Shown one piece after another: positions 2,463 through 21,473 of a stretch of 64,000 nucleotides of DNA. The DNA is from an uncultured Acidobacteriota bacterium (GTDB lineage Bacteria; Acidobacteriota; Thermoanaerobaculia; Multivoradales; UBA5704). How positions within the stretch are numbered: position 1 is the first letter of the stretch; each line of letters opens with the position of its first letter. The stretch spans positions 1,632,001-1,696,000 of the forward strand of contig CAVYRF010000002.1 of assembly GCA_963770895.1 (NCBI GenBank). Direction: 5' to 3'. The position numbers were made by a program, and so were the translations under genes. Below the pieces are notes generated by a model. That model had not been told where the DNA came from, searched no databases, and saw only the letters and a program-made list of their open reading frames with translations.

Positions 2463-2483
2463 CTAGGCCCGGCTTGATCGCTG

Positions 2484-2499
2484 CGTTTCACGTGAAACG
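2484..2499. promoter_or_regulatory. parS site
   Basis: Perfect palindrome CGTTTCACGTGAAACG matching the parS consensus. Confidence 0.9.
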
Positions 2500-2632
2500 T
2501 CACGGCGGTCTGGAAACGTTGCCGGCGCCGACCACGCCGACCTCGCGAGTCCCATCATCCAGCTCGCTCATCCGGGCCGCTCGAAGTCTGACCCCGACGC
2601 GACGTACCAGCTAGACCCGGCATTGATCGCTG

Positions 2633-2648
2633 CGTTTCACGTGAAACG
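2633..2648. promoter_or_regulatory. parS site
   Basis: CGTTTCACGTGAAACG. Confidence 0.9.
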
Positions 2649-2944
2649 TCGCGGCAGTCCGGAAACGTTGCCCCGCCGACCACGCCGGCCTTGCGAGTCC
2701 CATCACCCCAGCGCCCTCATCCGGACCGCTCGGAGGTCCGACCCCGACGGCGGGGACCAGGGAGGCCGAGGACGGCCCCCCTTGCTGGCACCGGCCACTC
2801 CGCCCCAAATCCATCCCGGCACGGAAGGGTGCCGCCCGTCACGAGCCGCTCGTCTCCATCCGCCAAGCGAACGCCACCCGCCCTCACCGCTGGCCCTGCG
2901 CAGGAGGCCACCGCGCGCCAGCTGAGGCCCGGCCTTGATCGCTG

Positions 2945-2960
2945 CGCTTCACGTGAAACG
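2945..2960. promoter_or_regulatory. parS site (1 mismatch)
   Basis: CGCTTCACGTGAAACG. Confidence 0.8.
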
Positions 2961-3071
2961 TCACGGTTGTCCGGGTACGTTGCCGGCGCCGACCACGCCG
3001 ACCTCGCGAGTCCCATCATCCCGCTCGCTCATCCGGGCCGCTCGAAGTCTGACCCCGACGAGACGTACCAG

Positions 3072-3736
3072 TAAGTATCCCCCGGCAGAGCCGGGGGCTT
3101 TAGAAAAACCGTGAGCCGCTCAAAGCGGCTGGAAGGGGTCGCTAACGCGACCCCTCAGGGTTGGAGCCACCGTTACGATGGCGGGTCATCGCCAGAGGTC
3201 AAGCTGGTCCACCCGCTCGTCCTCTTTCTGCTGGGCCTTGATGTACTCTCGAACTACCCTCTCGTCACGACCGACCGTTGACACGAAGTACCCTCGTGCC
3301 CAGAAATGCTGCCCCACAAAATTCCGCTTGCGCTCTCCGTACACCCGTGCCAGATGAATTGCGCTCTTGCCCTTGATGAACCCCACCACCTGCGATACCG
3401 CGTACTTCGGCGGGATAGACAGCAGCATATGGACATGGTCGGGCATCAGGTGGCCCTCCTCCACCCGGCTCTCTTTCTGGCCGGCCAGCTTCCGGAACAC
3501 CTCGCCAAGGTGTACCCGCAGCTGACCGTACAGCGTTCTTCGTCGGCACTTCGGGATGAACACCACGTGGTATTTGCACTCCCACGTCGTGTGGCTCAAA
3601 CTCTCGTACTTGTCCATCGTGGGTCTTCCTTTCGTGCGCTTGGCGGCTCACGAAGGAAGTCTCTGCGATGGACACTCCCTAAAATGTCAAACTTCTACTG
3701 CCTCCCCGGCAGAGCCGGGGGGCCTCCTTTGGGAGG
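3072..3736 (-). mobile_element. IS200/IS605-family element (tnpA only)
   Basis: Subterminal hairpins CCCCGGCAGAGCCGGGG at both ends; boundaries (+/-1 nt) defined by the empty site GTACCAG|CTAGACCCGG at 2603-2620; no TSD. Confidence 0.92.
3186..3617 (-). CDS. tnpA: IS200/IS605 Y1 HUH transposase
   Basis: KYHVVFIPK, DHVH (HUH), FWARGYFVSTVG, catalytic Tyr in YIKAQ. Confidence 0.96.
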   Translation of the reverse strand: MDKYESLSHTTWECKYHVVFIPKCRRRTLYGQLRVHLGEVFRKLAGQKESRVEEGHLMPDHVHMLLSIPPKYAVSQVVGFIKGKSAIHLARVYGERKRNFVGQHFWARGYFVSTVGRDERVVREYIKAQQKEDERVDQLDLWR

Positions 3737-3758
3737 CTAGACCCGGCATTGATCGCTG

Positions 3759-3774
3759 CGTTTCACGTGAAACG
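3759..3774. promoter_or_regulatory. parS site
   Basis: CGTTTCACGTGAAACG. Confidence 0.9.
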
Positions 3775-4068
3775 TCCCGGCAGTCCGGAAACGTTGCCCG
3801 CCGACCACGCCGGCCTTGCGAGTCCCATCTCCCCCAGCTCCCTCATCCGGACCGCTCGGAGGTCCGACCCCGACGGCGGGGACCAGGGAGGCCGAGGACG
3901 GCCCCCCTTGCTGGCACCGGCCACTCCGCCCCAAATCCATCCCGGCACGGAAGGGTGCCGCCCGTCACGAGCCGCTCGTCTCCATCCGCCAAGCGAACGC
4001 CACCCGCCCTCACCGCTGGCCCTGCGCAGGAGGCCACAGCGCGCCAGCTGACCCGGCCTTGATCGCTG

Positions 4069-4084
4069 CGTTTCACGTGAAACG
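4069..4084. promoter_or_regulatory. parS site
   Basis: CGTTTCACGTGAAACG. Confidence 0.9.
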
Positions 4085-4182
4085 TCACGGTAGTCCGGGT
4101 ACGTTGCCGGCGCCGACCACGCCGACCTCGCGAGTCCCATCATCCCGCTCCCGATTCGGACCACTCGAAATGCGATCCCTGT

Positions 4183-4304
4183 CCAGGGTGAACAGACCCT
4201 ACGGAGTCTTGCGCTGGATACGAAGGCCGCCGGCGGCGATGAAGTAGGCCTCCAGTGAGAGTTCTCCTTCCCGCACGATCGCCGTGCCGCTCTCCGCCTG
4301 CCGC
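4183..4304 (-). pseudogene. Inverted 122-bp fragment of the cNMP-binding protein gene (20561-20682)
   Basis: Reverse complement aligns gap-free with 7 mismatches, including TAC>TAG. Confidence 0.9.
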
Positions 4305-4339
4305 ACGGCTGTGGGGGCGGGGGCTGATATGGAACGACC

Positions 4340-4654
4340 TCTTGTCAAGTGGCAAGAGCTGACCCGGGTGGGGGGCTGTTGCCGGAAGTGGCAAGGGCGA
4401 ACCGACCTGAGACGACAGACGAGCGTGGACGCTTCGACGACGAGTCACTCTGATATTCGCGGGTTGCGCCGAGGTGGCGCAGAGCCGCAGGACGGTTCTT
4501 CGTCGGGAGGAATCGCTGTCTAAGGTCGCGAGTCCAGGCCCTTTGGCCCTGTCGCATAGCCCCCGTCGCGGGTCCTCCAATCGGTGCCGTGCTCATCCGT
4601 CGTCTCAGGCGGGCTCGCGCCCCGCGCCTACCTCCTTAGCCAGCGGTGGTTCTT
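4340..4654 (-). ncRNA. Putative bridge RNA / seekRNA of the IS1111-type element (exact ends unknown)
   Basis: Non-coding region contains segments matching both halves of the reconstructed target (4557-4565, 4520-4525) and of the circle junction (4449-4456, 4416-4422). Confidence 0.75.
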
Positions 4655-5805
4655 CTACTTGGACTTCGAGATTGCAGTTGGTGGTGGCTCAACTGGCCGC
4701 AGGGTCGCCCCAGACAGCACAGCCCAGATGAACCCGCTGAGCTCGCGGGCACAGGCGACCACCGCCTTGCTCACGGGTTGTCCGCGTCCCAATACCAGCC
4801 GGCTGTAGCGCCGGTGCAGCCGCTGCTGCGCTCGATCCGCCAGGGCGATCACCGCTGCCGGTTGACCCGTGCGCCGCCGGCGCAGCGCCACGCCCACTGC
4901 CGGCCGATGGCGGTAGTGGTGGGCAGCCTCGACCAGAAGGCGCCGCAGATGCCGGTTGCCAGTCTTGGTGATGCCGCCACGATGCACGCTCCCGCCGCTC
5001 GACGATTCGCTCGGCACCAACCCCAGATGCGCCATCAACTGCCGGGCGCCGGTGAAACGCTCGAAGCCGTGCAACTCGGCCAAGAGGATCATCGAGGTGA
5101 CCGTGTCGATCCCGCGAAAACACCGCAGCCAGCTCACCCGCTCGCGGTACGGCTCCTGCTCGGCCAAGCTCACAAGCTGTGCTTCCAGCTCTCCGAGACG
5201 AGCACCGATCTGGTCTACGGCCAGCAGGTAGTCGGACAGCACCACCCGCTCCGCGGCCTGTGCCAACTGCAGGCTCCACAGCCACTGCCGATGCTGCTGC
5301 GTCCAAGGCCGGCCCCCTGAGTAGCGCAGGTCCCGCCGTAACAGCAGCTTGCTCAGCCGGTGCCGGGCTCGCATCAGGTCCACTCGCGCATCATCGCGAC
5401 ACCGGCAGAGGCCCGCACCGCCTCTTCGGCCTCGCTCGGTGGACGCACCTCGGTCAACAAACCCGCCCGCGACAGCTCCGCCAACTTCCGAGCATCCCGG
5501 CGGTCCGTCTTGATCCGCTCCCCCGACTTGCGCGGAATCAACGACGGCGCCACCACCTGACAACGCACCCCCCGGCCCCTGCAACTGACGCTGCAACCCG
5601 TAACCGCATGGACCCGCTTCGTAGGCGCACTGCACCACCCCCCTCCGTCTCGCTTCAGTTTGCGCACCAGCTTGCGAACCTCGCTCGGCTCATTGCGCAG
5701 CTCCCATTGCACCGGCTTGCTGCCAACCGAACCTGCCAGCAGCGCCACGCTGATCGACGCCTTGTGCACATCCAGACCCACGTAGGTGGTGGTACCCTCT
5801 TCCAT
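4655..5805 (-). pseudogene. IS110-family DEDD recombinase/transposase, frameshifted
   Basis: YVGLDVHK, YEAGPCGY, IKTDRRDA, GLVPSESSSG, ITKTGN motifs are spread over two alternating frames (shifts near 5640, 5575, 5410). Confidence 0.85.
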
Positions 5806-6112
5806 GACCGGTTCCTCCGTCGTCTGCGGCTCTGACGACGCCTCGGCTGCGTTAACCCGCGTTCCTCGGTGGGACCCACTCCCACCTCTCGTGACTTCCT
5901 AACGGCCAGTCACGATCCTACGACCGCGGGGAACCGGTCGTTCCATATCGTCTAAGGCCTCGAGTTCGAGCACCCCGGCAAGGGCTCTGCGGGTGGCAAC
6001 ACTCTGGAGAGAATGGTCTATTCGTGTCGTGCCGGCTCTCGCTGCCCTAGATCATCTGGGCGGTCTTCCCTATAGGGGAGGACGACTCCAGCCCGGCCCT
6101 GCTTTGCCATAA

Positions 6113-7335
6113 GGCCCTGCGGGGCACCCGGCACGATCCTGCGGTCGAGCCCATGCCGCACCGGTGCTCGCCGCGTACGGCGGGGGAAGGCTCCCCGCGC
6201 GCCGTGCTTCCTCGGCAAGGTCACACCAGGCACCGAACCACGCGGGGGCACCGCGCGCCACCGGCCATCGGAACCGCTCCTACCCATCTGCCCATGTCGG
6301 GGCGTGGCGCTGCTGGCTGTGCCGTTCCGCACCCGCGTCAAGCCTGACGCGGGTGCGGAACGGCGGGGCCTTGCTCCCAGCGACCGAGACGGGCGCCGGC
6401 CCCGCTCGGCTCGGCCGCAAGGCACTGCAGGGCGCCCGGTACGATCCTCTGGTCAAGCCCACCTGTACCGGCGCCCGCCGCCAACGGCGGGAGCAAGCTT
6501 CCCGCGCCGTGACTTCGCGGCAAGATCACACCAGACACTAGCGCTACCTTCAAGCGGGAGGCGCAGCGCAACCTTGGCGATCGGAATCACCCCCGTCTGC
6601 CCGGTCTCACAGGCGTGGTGCTGCTGGCAGCACCGTTCCGGTCCCGCGTCAAGCTGGCGCGGGCCGGATCGGCTGGGGCCTTGCTCCCAGCGGCCGAGAC
6701 GGGCGCCGGCCCGGCTCGCATTAGCCGCAAGGCACCGCAGGGCGCCCGGCACGGGCCTGCGGCCAAGTTCACCCGGCACTTGCGCCCCGCCGCCAACGGC
6801 AGGAAAAAGGCTTCGTACCGTGCTCCCGGACCAGGCACCGGGACGACCTTGACGGGAGAGCGGCGCAACACCGGCCATCGCAATCGCTCCTGCCCATCTG
6901 CCCGTGTTAGGGGCGCGGCGCTGCTGGCTGTGCCGTTCCGCACCCGCGTCAAGCCTGACGCGGGCGCGGAACGGCGGGGCCTTGCTCCCAGCGGCCGAGA
7001 CGGGCGCCGGCCCGGCTCGGCTTGGCCGCAAGGCTCTGCCGGGCGCCCGGTACGACCCCCCGGTCAAGCCCTATCTGTACCGGCGCCCGCCGCCAGCGGT
7101 GGGAGAAGGCCCCCCGCGCCGCGACCCCGCGGCAAGATCACGCCACGCACAGAACGACCCTAACGGGAAAGCGCGGCGCAACACCGACCATCGCGATCGC
7201 TCCTGTCCTGCTGCCCCATCAGAGTCATGGCGTTGCTAGCTGCGCCGTTCCGGCTCCAACGTCAAGCCCTGACGCGGTGACTTGCTCCCGCAGCCGAGAC
7301 GGGCGCCGGCCCCAGCCTGCCTTGACCGCTGGCCG
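6113..7335. repeat. ~300-310-bp degenerate tandem repeat (family R1): 4 copies
   Basis: Anchors at 6122, 6430, 6740, 7041; hairpins at 6321-6364 (perfect 20 bp), 6632-6673, 6932-6975. Confidence 0.9.
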
Positions 7336-20471: not shown

Positions 20472-21473
20472 TTGAGCACCGAGAACGTCCTGCGGCAGTG
20501 GGAGCTCTTCTCCCACTTCGCTGACTCACAGCTCGACCGGCTGGCCGGCTGCGCGCAGTGGCGGCAGGCGGAGAGCGGCACGGCGATCGTGCGGGAAGGA
20601 GAACCCTCGCTGGAGGCCTACTTCATCGCCGCCGGCGGCGTCCGCATCCAGCGCAAGACTCCTTACGGTCTGTTCACCCTGGCCACGCTCAAGCCCGGCG
20701 ACCTGTTCGGCGAAACCAGCTTTGTCGACGGCAACGCCCGCTCCGGCGACGCCATGGCGATCAAGCCGTGCCAGCTGATGGCGCTCAATCCCCAGGCGAT
20801 CTCCCTGGCGATGGAGAGCGATCCGGCGTTCAGCGTCTCGCTGCATTGGGCGTTCTGGAAGAGCCTCTCCTTCAAACTGCGCCAGACCAACGACCAGCTG
20901 ACCCGGTTCTTCTCCAAGTCGGGCAAGCCGCCCAGCGTCCAGGCGCCCGCGGCGCCAGGCGTCGCCGACGACTTTCGCGTCGACCTGGCCTCGAAGCGCA
21001 AGCTCTTTCAGGAGCAGAAGCTCTCCAGCCTGGAGATCAACTTCCTGGCCTCGCTGTCGCGCGAAAAGAAGTTCGCGCCCCACCAGCAGATCTTCCGCGA
21101 GGGCGAGCAGGGCGACGAAATGTACGTCCTTCTGGAAGGGCGGGTGATGATCAGCAAGTTCATCCCCGGCGCCGGCGAAGAAGCGCTCGCCTTCCTCGAG
21201 CGCGGCGACTACTTCGGCGAGATGGCGCTGATCGACAACCGCGAGCGCTCGGCGGACGCGACCGCCTCCGACCAGGGCGCCGTCGTGCTGGCCATTCCGC
21301 GCGAGGTGCTGGTCGGCATCCTCGACATCCAGCGCGTTTCTTCGCTGCGCCTGCTGCGCCTGCTCTGCACCCTGGTGGCCCGGCGGCTGCGCGAGCTGGA
21401 CGACAAGATCATCGGCTGGTTCATCCTGGCCGGCGGCTCGGCAACCGGCTGGCCGGTCGGCCGCGACGCCTGA
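20472..21473 (+). CDS. Protein with two tandem cyclic-nucleotide-binding domains
   Basis: IVREGE...FGETSFVDGNARSGDA and IFREGE...FGEMALIDNRERSADA; TTG start follows TACAAT. Confidence 0.85.
   Translation: MSTENVLRQWELFSHFADSQLDRLAGCAQWRQAESGTAIVREGEPSLEAYFIAAGGVRIQRKTPYGLFTLATLKPGDLFGETSFVDGNARSGDAMAIKPCQLMALNPQAISLAMESDPAFSVSLHWAFWKSLSFKLRQTNDQLTRFFSKSGKPPSVQAPAAPGVADDFRVDLASKRKLFQEQKLSSLEINFLASLSREKKFAPHQQIFREGEQGDEMYVLLEGRVMISKFIPGAGEEALAFLERGDYFGEMALIDNRERSADATASDQGAVVLAIPREVLVGILDIQRVSSLRLLRLLCTLVARRLRELDDKIIGWFILAGGSATGWPVGRDA

Follow-up and report, generated by a model that had tools for sequence, protein, structure and literature searches.

Does the non-coding region of the insertion sequence at 4324-5953 of the window (the whole stretch of 64,000 nucleotides that was analysed) encode an RNA that reads both the target and the ends of its own element, and if so, which of its bases do the reading? 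An earlier note on this DNA had placed an RNA-guide region 3' of an IS110/IS1111 transposase gene and had named four guide segments in it, two for the target and two for the donor. It is very likely (probability about 0.88) that 4324-5953 holds a single copy, now decayed, of an RNA-guided insertion sequence that belongs to the IS110 family and within it to the IS1111 type, and the arguments for this assignment are given first, followed by those for the individual guides. The published accounts of seekRNAs (PMC11187229) and bridge RNAs (PMC11208160, PMC13626964) are cited throughout from parts of their text.

Anatomy of the element and its ends

The element consists of the following parts, where minus is the strand of the transposase gene.

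4324-5953 (minus): complete insertion sequence, the core dinucleotides at both ends included; 1628 bp, to which the second core copy is added, as read from the junctions
4324-4325 (no strand): core dinucleotide at the right-end junction, CT on the plus strand and AG on the transposase strand
4326-4339 (no strand): right-end subterminal inverted repeat of 14 bp, the reverse complement of 5936-5949
4326-4654 (minus): non-coding region encoding the predicted seekRNA/bridge RNA, from the fold, the family alignment and covarying helices
4343-4348 (minus): TTGACA, conserved close to the right end and a candidate for the -35 box of a promoter at the junction, in a conserved alignment block (columns ~333-340 of alignment A1, see below)
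4655-5805 (minus): gene for a DEDD transposase of the IS110 family, interrupted by frameshifts at three places, near 5638, 5570 and 5411
5936-5949 (no strand): left-end subterminal inverted repeat, separated from the core by a 2-nt extension (5950-5951)
5952-5953 (no strand): core dinucleotide at the left-end junction, CT/AG

On the plus strand, the low-end junction reads ...CGGGGG-CT-GATATGG... (4318-4332; in a longer reading ...CGGGGG-CT-GATATGGAACGACC...) and the high-end junction ...CCATATCGT-CT-AAGG (5943-5957; in a longer reading ...GGTCGTTCCATATCGT-CT-AAGG...), exactly as the earlier note had it with CGGGGG-CT-AAGG as the target and a donor across the element ends with the same CT core. 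In the orientation of the transposase, the target is CCTT-AG-CCCCCG (12 bp) and the circle junction ...CCATATC-AG-ACGATATGG..., and the extent of the element is supported by a metagenome contig of 1636 nt that spans exactly 4321-5954. The core dinucleotide is duplicated without a long target duplication, with CT/AG at both junctions, as expected for the IS110 family. The IS1111 type has been described by subterminal inverted repeats, a downstream non-coding region and a GL-P----S(t)G motif in the transposase (Siddiquee et al. 2024, PMC11187229). In the window, which has a G+C content of 69%, the repeats are 14 bp long and lie within the range of 7-17 bp for this type, and the longer non-coding region is indeed the one 3' of the transposase, with 329 nt from the stop codon at 4655 to the right end as compared to 146 nt upstream.

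The TTGACA stands 17 nt from the right end in the window copy and is kept in most relatives. By analogy with the promoter formed at the circle junction that is discussed for seekRNA elements (PMC11187229), it is a candidate for the -35 box of such a promoter; no convincing -10 box was seen by eye at the standard spacing from it.

The unoccupied 12-mer target has 0 occurrences in the element's own genome, with 4.43 expected from base composition, and no empty site was found across 92 family genomes searched with each flank. The right flank is without relatives. The left flank (4180-4304) is a 94% identical inverted duplicate of 20561-20675, an internal fragment of a gene at about 20.5-21.5 kb that by eye resembles a cyclic-nucleotide-binding protein, and the similarity stops 19 nt short of the insertion point.

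The element sits in a repeat-rich stretch downstream of the rsmG/gidB gene (958-1623), with arrays of about 300-310-nt units on both of its sides (1760-2460 and 6070-7260; also 2468-4195), and this repeat field also holds a 143-nt unit family and a 220-nt pair at 99% identity. An IS200-like Y1 transposase (PF01797, E 1.2e-36) is encoded at 3186-3617 on the minus strand, with the same G+C-rich palindrome (CCCCGGCAGAGCCGGGG) on both of its sides (3079-3098 and 3704-3722), and the locus probably represents the insertion of an IS200/IS605-type element into this repeat field. In the genome (G000), words that contain CTAG are strongly depleted: GGGGCTAAGG occurs 2 times where 35 are expected, and several 10-13-nt words with CCTAGG are found 0 times where base composition predicts 4-86.

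The transposase and the state of the copy

The transposase gene is read in two overlapping pieces on the minus strand, with PF01548 (DEDD_Tnp_IS110, E 1.5e-8) in the open reading frame 5805-5374 and PF02371 (Transposase_20, E 1.1e-19) in the open reading frame 5638-4655, so that both the N-terminal DEDD/RuvC-like and the C-terminal domain of the IS110 family are present in a frameshifted gene. The NCBIfam model NF033542 ('IS110 family RNA-guided transposase') matches both pieces with 62.3 and 126.6 bits, each of which alone is below the cut-off of 140 bits. Homologues align to the gene in alternating frames, and a read-through with N at the three frameshifts gives 383 aa in the homologous order, with GLVPSESSSG at residue 262, which is the GL-P----S(t)G motif of the C-terminal domain in IS1111 transposases; the read-through is longer than the 330-350 aa given for these transposases (PMC11187229). 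The Pfam and NCBIfam matches, the motif, the 14-bp repeats and the 329-nt non-coding region together bear out the proposed assignment to IS110/IS1111 with an RNA-guide region 3' of the transposase.

The 1636-nt contig that covers 4321-5954 (X6) comes from a soil metagenome of another study and differs from the window by 40 substitutions and by indels at 5411, 5570 and 5638, exactly the places where the frame changes, and it is in frame at all three. Intact proteins of 383 aa with 98% and 93% identity over the C-terminal 246-residue query (4655-5395) are found in public data. The genome of the window holds one copy of the element and one IS110-type transposase, and as this one is frameshifted three times and there is no other IS110-family transposase in the genome, the window copy cannot move by itself. 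We read the frameshifts as real decay of this copy. They could also be assembly errors in an intact and active element, for which the guide RNA reading would be the same, and two of the three sites do sit in C6 runs, X6 is in frame at all three sites and another contig (X1) at one, and the assembly has only 3 contigs, which is taken as a sign of long reads. This is nevertheless unlikely, because the 5411 site is outside homopolymer runs, X1, which is from the same locus and extends into the right flank up to 6297, keeps both C6-run states (though not the 5411 state), and a contig of run X5 is identical to the window over 5104-5768 with all three sites included, although X5 is possibly the assembly's own source and so not certainly independent. 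For X5 and also for X7, the uncovered parts of the examined stretch were left out of the interpretation.

Relatives of the element

From the 125 relatives that a scan of species genomes yielded, 80 were retained, with at best 64% identity over the C-terminal 246 residues, and from the 208 of a scan of metagenome contigs likewise 80, with at best 82% identity. Closer metagenome relatives have 73-82% protein identity and nearly the same RNA backbone. The ends of the elements were fixed by multi-copy sets and then by family end motifs; a search seeded with inverted repeats had turned out too noisy in G+C-rich DNA and was replaced by these multi-copy comparisons and motifs. The family-wide motifs are AG-AC..TATGG at the left end and CCATAT[C/G]-AG at the right end, and both were found in 43 of 80 related genome loci. 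AG stands at the left-end junction in all 43 two-ended relatives, and at the right-end junction in all but L098 and L099, which have GG. Covariation was counted on an alignment of 24 non-coding regions (A1), with the flanks of other elements and 5000 permutations as controls, and as the relatives are kin, permutation counts overstate independence.

In L098, L099 and L190, the right junction reads GG where the left one reads AG, so the two core copies are not always identical after insertion, and the target 5' guide of L098 (GGAAUCCA) agrees with the GG form. In some relatives the non-coding region is longer by 200-300 nt: it measures about 575-597 nt in L054, L060, L063, L065 and L071, with the extra sequence between the donor loop and the right end, and 527-607 nt in L108, L164 and L180. 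Left-end-only fragments of 74-93% identity occur in a set formed by L006, L007, L009, L023 and L024 (in the same-genus genomes G080, G081 and G083) and L003 (G000:C1:2004827-2004891), and other fragments of this set comprise just the part from the donor loop to the right end, with the similarity beginning at the donor loop and without a target loop. These fragments have various flanks and no adjacent IS110-type transposase, PF02371 has no match in G081, and they could be relics or non-autonomous pieces. A 45-kb element between a left-end-like and a right-end-like fragment on contig 85 of G080 was considered and dropped for lack of support: the sole IS110-type transposase of G080 is on another contig, relatives have the left flank in common for no more than about 138 nt from the fragment, and the right flank does not lie close by.

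The predicted RNA and its two loops

The non-coding region folds with -155 kcal/mol (z -4.57), and the predicted RNA has the following parts, in 5' to 3' order on the minus strand.

4591-4610 (minus): basal helix P1, 5' strand, in predicted folds
4506-4578 (minus): target-binding domain, in the constrained fold
4557-4565 (minus): CGGGGGCUA, 5'-side guide of the target loop and complement of T-AG-CCCCCG in the transposase strand
4520-4525 (minus): CCUUAG, 3'-side guide of the target loop, identical to the left flank CCTT plus core AG
4435-4505 (minus): donor-binding domain, in the constrained fold
4491-4495 (minus): CCGUC, 5'-side guide of the donor loop, for the left end; the homologous column in the family
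4449-4456 (minus): AUAUCAGA, 3'-side guide of the donor loop, for the right end; corresponding to the right end ATATC, core AG and the first left-end base
4405-4424 (minus): basal helix P1, 3' strand, pairing with 4610-4591 over 20 bp and including UCGUCUG

The constrained fold is one in which the four guides are held unpaired. Its target domain has lower stems at 4578-4573/4511-4506 and 4570-4568/4516-4514, an upper stem at 4556-4552/4531-4527 and an apical hairpin, and its donor domain has a lower stem at 4505-4500/4440-4435, an upper stem at 4489-4485/4462-4458 and an apical hairpin at 4481-4476/4470-4465. In this fold CGGGGGCUA faces CCUUAG across one internal loop and CCGUC faces AUAUCAGA across the other. 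The proposed order of a target-binding loop followed by a donor-binding loop is supported. In the RNAalifold prediction, the target loop has stems on either side and the donor loop has them above it.

The stems also covary. When a hand-drawn structure of four helices was counted on A1, 83.2% of the cells were paired, in contrast to 34-43% with the 3' partners slid, and double-sided changes were found in 12 of 24 pairs, in contrast to 5-8 when slid, values of pairing and double-sided change that were reached in 0 of 500 shuffles. Helices 1 and 2, which belong to the target domain, have double-sided changes in 7/9 and 3/5 pairs, and in the donor domain, pairing of the upper stem reaches 100%, and one of its pairs shows 10 double-sided changes. 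The guides therefore lie in internal loops flanked by conserved stems, as in seekRNAs and bridge RNAs, with the restriction that the lower donor stem is almost invariant, which is why covariation cannot confirm it; one subgroup has an alternative upstream partner for this stem. A scan of 4200-6100 against Rfam with E values up to 10 gave no matching family, only two sub-threshold chance hits.

The guides of the target loop

All four strings of the earlier note are present on the minus strand where it had put them, namely CGGGGGCTA at 4565-4557, CCTTAG at 4525-4520, ATATCAGA at 4456-4449 and TCGTCTG at 4422-4416, and the question is which of them are guides. For the two target guides, the matches were compared with 5000 dinucleotide shuffles of the 329-nt non-coding region. 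A core-spanning target match of at least 9 nt to either strand occurs in 2.0% of the shuffles, and such a 9-nt match followed within 20-80 nt by a match of at least 6 nt to the other strand in 0.04%, so the target pair, with its joint arrangement, is far beyond chance. The two guides, of 9 nt and 6 nt, match both strands of the element's own target and overlap at the core, which is the arrangement of seekRNAs and bridge RNAs.

The same arrangement is found in the relatives, where the guides change together with the flanks. Among 35 distinct non-coding regions, the longest core-spanning match to the right flank usually lies 215-245 nt from the right end, and the matches differ between elements, for example CTGCGTCCT, GATGGCTA, TCGACTA and AGAGCCTA. 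In the 24 regions of A1, the 5' guide fits the right flank of its own element at 63 of 87 positions (17 distinct pairs), compared to 29% for the flanks of other elements, and 0 of 5000 permutations reach this value, which is an undercount, as eight sequences are one column out of register. The 3' guide fits its own left flank at 55 of 80 positions on A1, compared to 36%, again with 0 of 5000 permutations. Among the closer metagenome relatives, the respective figures are 61/85 for the 5' guide (permutation mean 27.1, 0 of 10000) and 33/52 for the 3' guide (8 of 10000). The fit is not perfect everywhere: at the aligned columns, L152 (0/5), L163 (2/5) and L148 (3/5) fit their right flanks poorly, the misfits of L167 (0/5) and L157 (2/5) are register shifts in the alignment, and the left-flank guide matches just 2 of 4 variable positions in many relatives. 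The shuffles, the fold and the covariation together support the reading of CGGGGG-CT-AAGG by CGGGGGCUA and CCUUAG.

Two variants, X6 and X7, have changes at 4523 and 4525 that turn CCUUAG into UCCUAG. On the sequence, this is a putative natural change of the left-flank guide. One X7 contig has CGGGGG-CT and the right end in common with the window and a different upstream sequence (31 letters on the element side, depth 3.1), which hints weakly at an independent insertion into that half-site.

The guides of the donor loop

The second loop holds AUAUCAGA, which reads the right end plus core as had been proposed, and which is perfect at the aligned columns in 24/24 sequences. As a donor match of at least 8 nt to either strand occurs in 3.8% of the shuffles, this guide is moderately beyond chance when taken alone. 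A match of at least 7 nt to right end plus core stands at the same relative place in 35/35 distinct non-coding regions, with a distance to the right end of 96-147 nt in short elements and of about 385-402 nt in those with the long insertion. The donor 3' columns agree with the right end at 5/5 positions in all 24 aligned sequences, which represent just three distinct end variants (ATATC, ATATG and ATACC), too few for a permutation test.

For the left end, the earlier note had chosen UCGUCUG (4422-4416), downstream of AUAUCAGA, and had concluded that the two loops read their sites in opposite strand order. The family alignment points to another segment: the predicted homologous left-end guide is CCGUC (4495-4491), which lies 5' of AUAUCAGA and of which CGUC (4494-4491) pairs with G-ACG of the core plus left end. 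On A1, the donor 5' columns match their own left end at 50 of 72 positions, compared to 50% for other elements, with 0 of 5000 permutations. Across from left-end position 3, 10 of 13 relatives have a complementary base, giving C:G, U:A and G:C, and the other three (L146, L148 and L154) a mismatch. In the window copy this guide is short, with 4 contiguous pairs, and the base opposite the second core position is unpaired. As the left-end guide lies at CCGUC, on the 5' side, both loops read their sites in the same order, with the complement of the top strand on the 5' side and the complement of the bottom strand on the 3' side, and the opposite strand order falls.

UCGUCUG was rejected as a guide since it lies within the predicted 20-bp basal helix, in the free and the constrained minimum-energy folds alike. 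Its 7 nt are perfectly complementary to C-AG-ACGA, which spans the donor junction, a longer match than the 4 contiguous nucleotides at the homologous 5' position, and on this basis the full original model, with UCGUCUG as the fourth guide and a donor loop of opposite strand order, has something in its favour. However, a donor match of at least 7 nt to either strand occurs in 17% of the shuffles, so the match alone may be due to chance, and the aligned columns fit their own donor junction at 42 of 106 positions, compared to 37% for other junctions, a value reached by 1195 of 5000 permutations. The base for left-end position 3 is complementary in just 2 of 13 relatives, and relatives with the left end ACAAT retain UCGUC(U/C)G. 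In the minimum-energy folds of 21 of the 24 aligned sequences, every base of the aligned segment pairs with the strand 5' of the target loop in 11/21, and no more than one base fails to do so in 15/21, and in L039 and L088 both strands of the helix have changed together at this segment with the pairing kept, which is a compensatory change. The original model is thus very improbable, and CCGUC on the 5' side of the donor loop is the preferred left-end guide.

Of the four segments that were supposed to lie in two internal loops, three do and UCGUCUG does not, and likewise the target guides and the right-end guide track the flanks and ends of the homologues and UCGUCUG does not. The combination of a place in a stem with a lack of covariation, which the earlier note itself had named as speaking against its guides, is found for this segment and not for the other three. 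With CCGUC in its place, guide positions covary with targets and donors across the orthologues, as in the known seekRNA and bridge RNA systems.

A possible mechanism

The anatomy of the element, the covariation of the guides with flanks and ends, the covarying stems and the three frameshifts are direct observations; the production of the RNA, its binding by the protein and the recombination chemistry are pictured here by analogy with ISEc11, ISPa11 and IS621. None of the sequencing runs listed for this sequence is an RNA run, which is neutral as to whether the RNA is made. The 3' non-coding region would be transcribed together with the transposase and fold into a long basal helix with two stem-loop domains. 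In the first loop, CGGGGGCUA would pair with the transposase-sense target strand T-AG-CCCCCG, and CCUUAG with the opposite strand of CCTT-AG. In the second loop, CCGUC would pair with the core plus left end (G-ACG) of the circular junction and AUAUCAGA with the opposite strand of its right end plus core (ATATC-AG-A). The DEDD/Ser recombinase would then exchange the strands at the AG/CT core, and the element would be placed in one orientation in CCTT-AG-CCCCCG. That the matches are coincidental, and the region just a structured 3' untranslated region or a transposase-binding end, is hardly credible even with no Rfam match and a guide RNA known here from sequence alone, given the joint chance of 0.04% for the target pair, guide columns that vary with flanks and ends across dozens of relatives in a conserved backbone, and an arrangement that is the one published for IS1111 seekRNAs (PMC11187229).

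Comparison with known seekRNAs and bridge RNAs

The element resembles the IS1111 elements with seekRNAs (ISEc11, ISPa11, ISKpn4 and ISPst6; PMC11187229) in its DEDD transposase, the motif, the repeats and the non-coding region. IS1111 seekRNAs have two target matches, with the complement of the top strand 5' of the complement of the bottom strand (PMC11187229), and the two short target matches of the window element likewise overlap at the insertion point and stand in the same order. Its target domain of about 73 nt (4578-4506) fits the 70-100 nt of the short seekRNA, and the target and donor domains together, with about 144 nt (4578-4435), fit the 145-170 nt of the long seekRNA (PMC11187229). 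It differs in that the window copy is broken and was read as DNA only, and in that guides for the donor ends are readable as well, whereas the seekRNA description, in the part cited, is one of target matches (PMC11187229).

With the bridge RNA of IS621 (PMC11208160; Hiraizumi-type structures via PMC13626964), the RNA shares two internal loops, the target loop first and the donor loop second, and the core CT. The target guides of 9 nt (5') and 6 nt (3') are within the IS621 ranges of 8-9 and 4-7 nt (PMC11208160, PMC13626964). In contrast to IS621, which has its RNA in the left end (PMC11208160), the RNA here is at the right end, 3' of the transposase, the CT core is on the strand opposite to the one from which transposase and RNA are transcribed, the subterminal inverted repeats have 14 bp instead of 2-3 bp, and the left-end type of donor guide is short, with its 4 contiguous pairs and the second core base unpaired; in IS621 every pairing takes in the core (Durrant et al. 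2024, PMC11208160). The bridge RNAs predicted by covariance models for the IS1111 group (Durrant et al. 2024, PMC11208160) lie in the right end as well, and have 8-14 nt of complementarity between their loops and target or donor (PMC11208160). The donor-binding bases of many IS1111 RNAs are in a multi-loop (PMC11208160), whereas here they are in a simple internal loop of the constrained fold.

By the IS621 rule, the 5' guide repeats the left half of the site together with the core, and the 3' guide is the complement of the core and the right half (PMC11208160). If the window element is read on the strand with the CT core (the plus strand of the window), CGGGGGCUA in the target loop has the sequence of the left half with the core, and CCUUAG is the complement of the core with the right half; in the donor loop, CCGUC is the counterpart of ..CGT-C in the left donor half, and AUAUCAGA is complementary to CT-GATAT. 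In our own reading, both loops fit the IS621 rule on the CT strand, and the difference is that transposase and RNA are on the other strand and the RNA at the other end.

What the element means for the family

The class of this system, IS110/IS1111 RNA-guided, has been known since 2024, and no new principle is added; the earlier note had rightly called the class known. For annotation, the locus is a dead insertion sequence and not an active one. It is a clean natural example from soil bacteria in which a 12-bp target and both ends can be read from an IS1111-type RNA, with a donor loop of a kind that is without description in the seekRNA account as far as the part cited goes (PMC11187229). The odds seem even that in this family, and possibly in the IS1111 type generally, both loops obey the geometry of IS621 on the strand of the CT core, including a readable two-part donor loop. 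The 'reversed order' of IS1111 seekRNAs would then be an inversion of the transposase-RNA cassette relative to the crossover site and not a different recognition mechanism, and the 73-82% identical relatives, with their conserved backbone and freely varying guides, would be a natural series of reprogrammed guides. As the relatives keep the scaffold and change at the guide positions, such a series could help to define the programmable positions of IS1111-type RNAs, those of the donor loop included.
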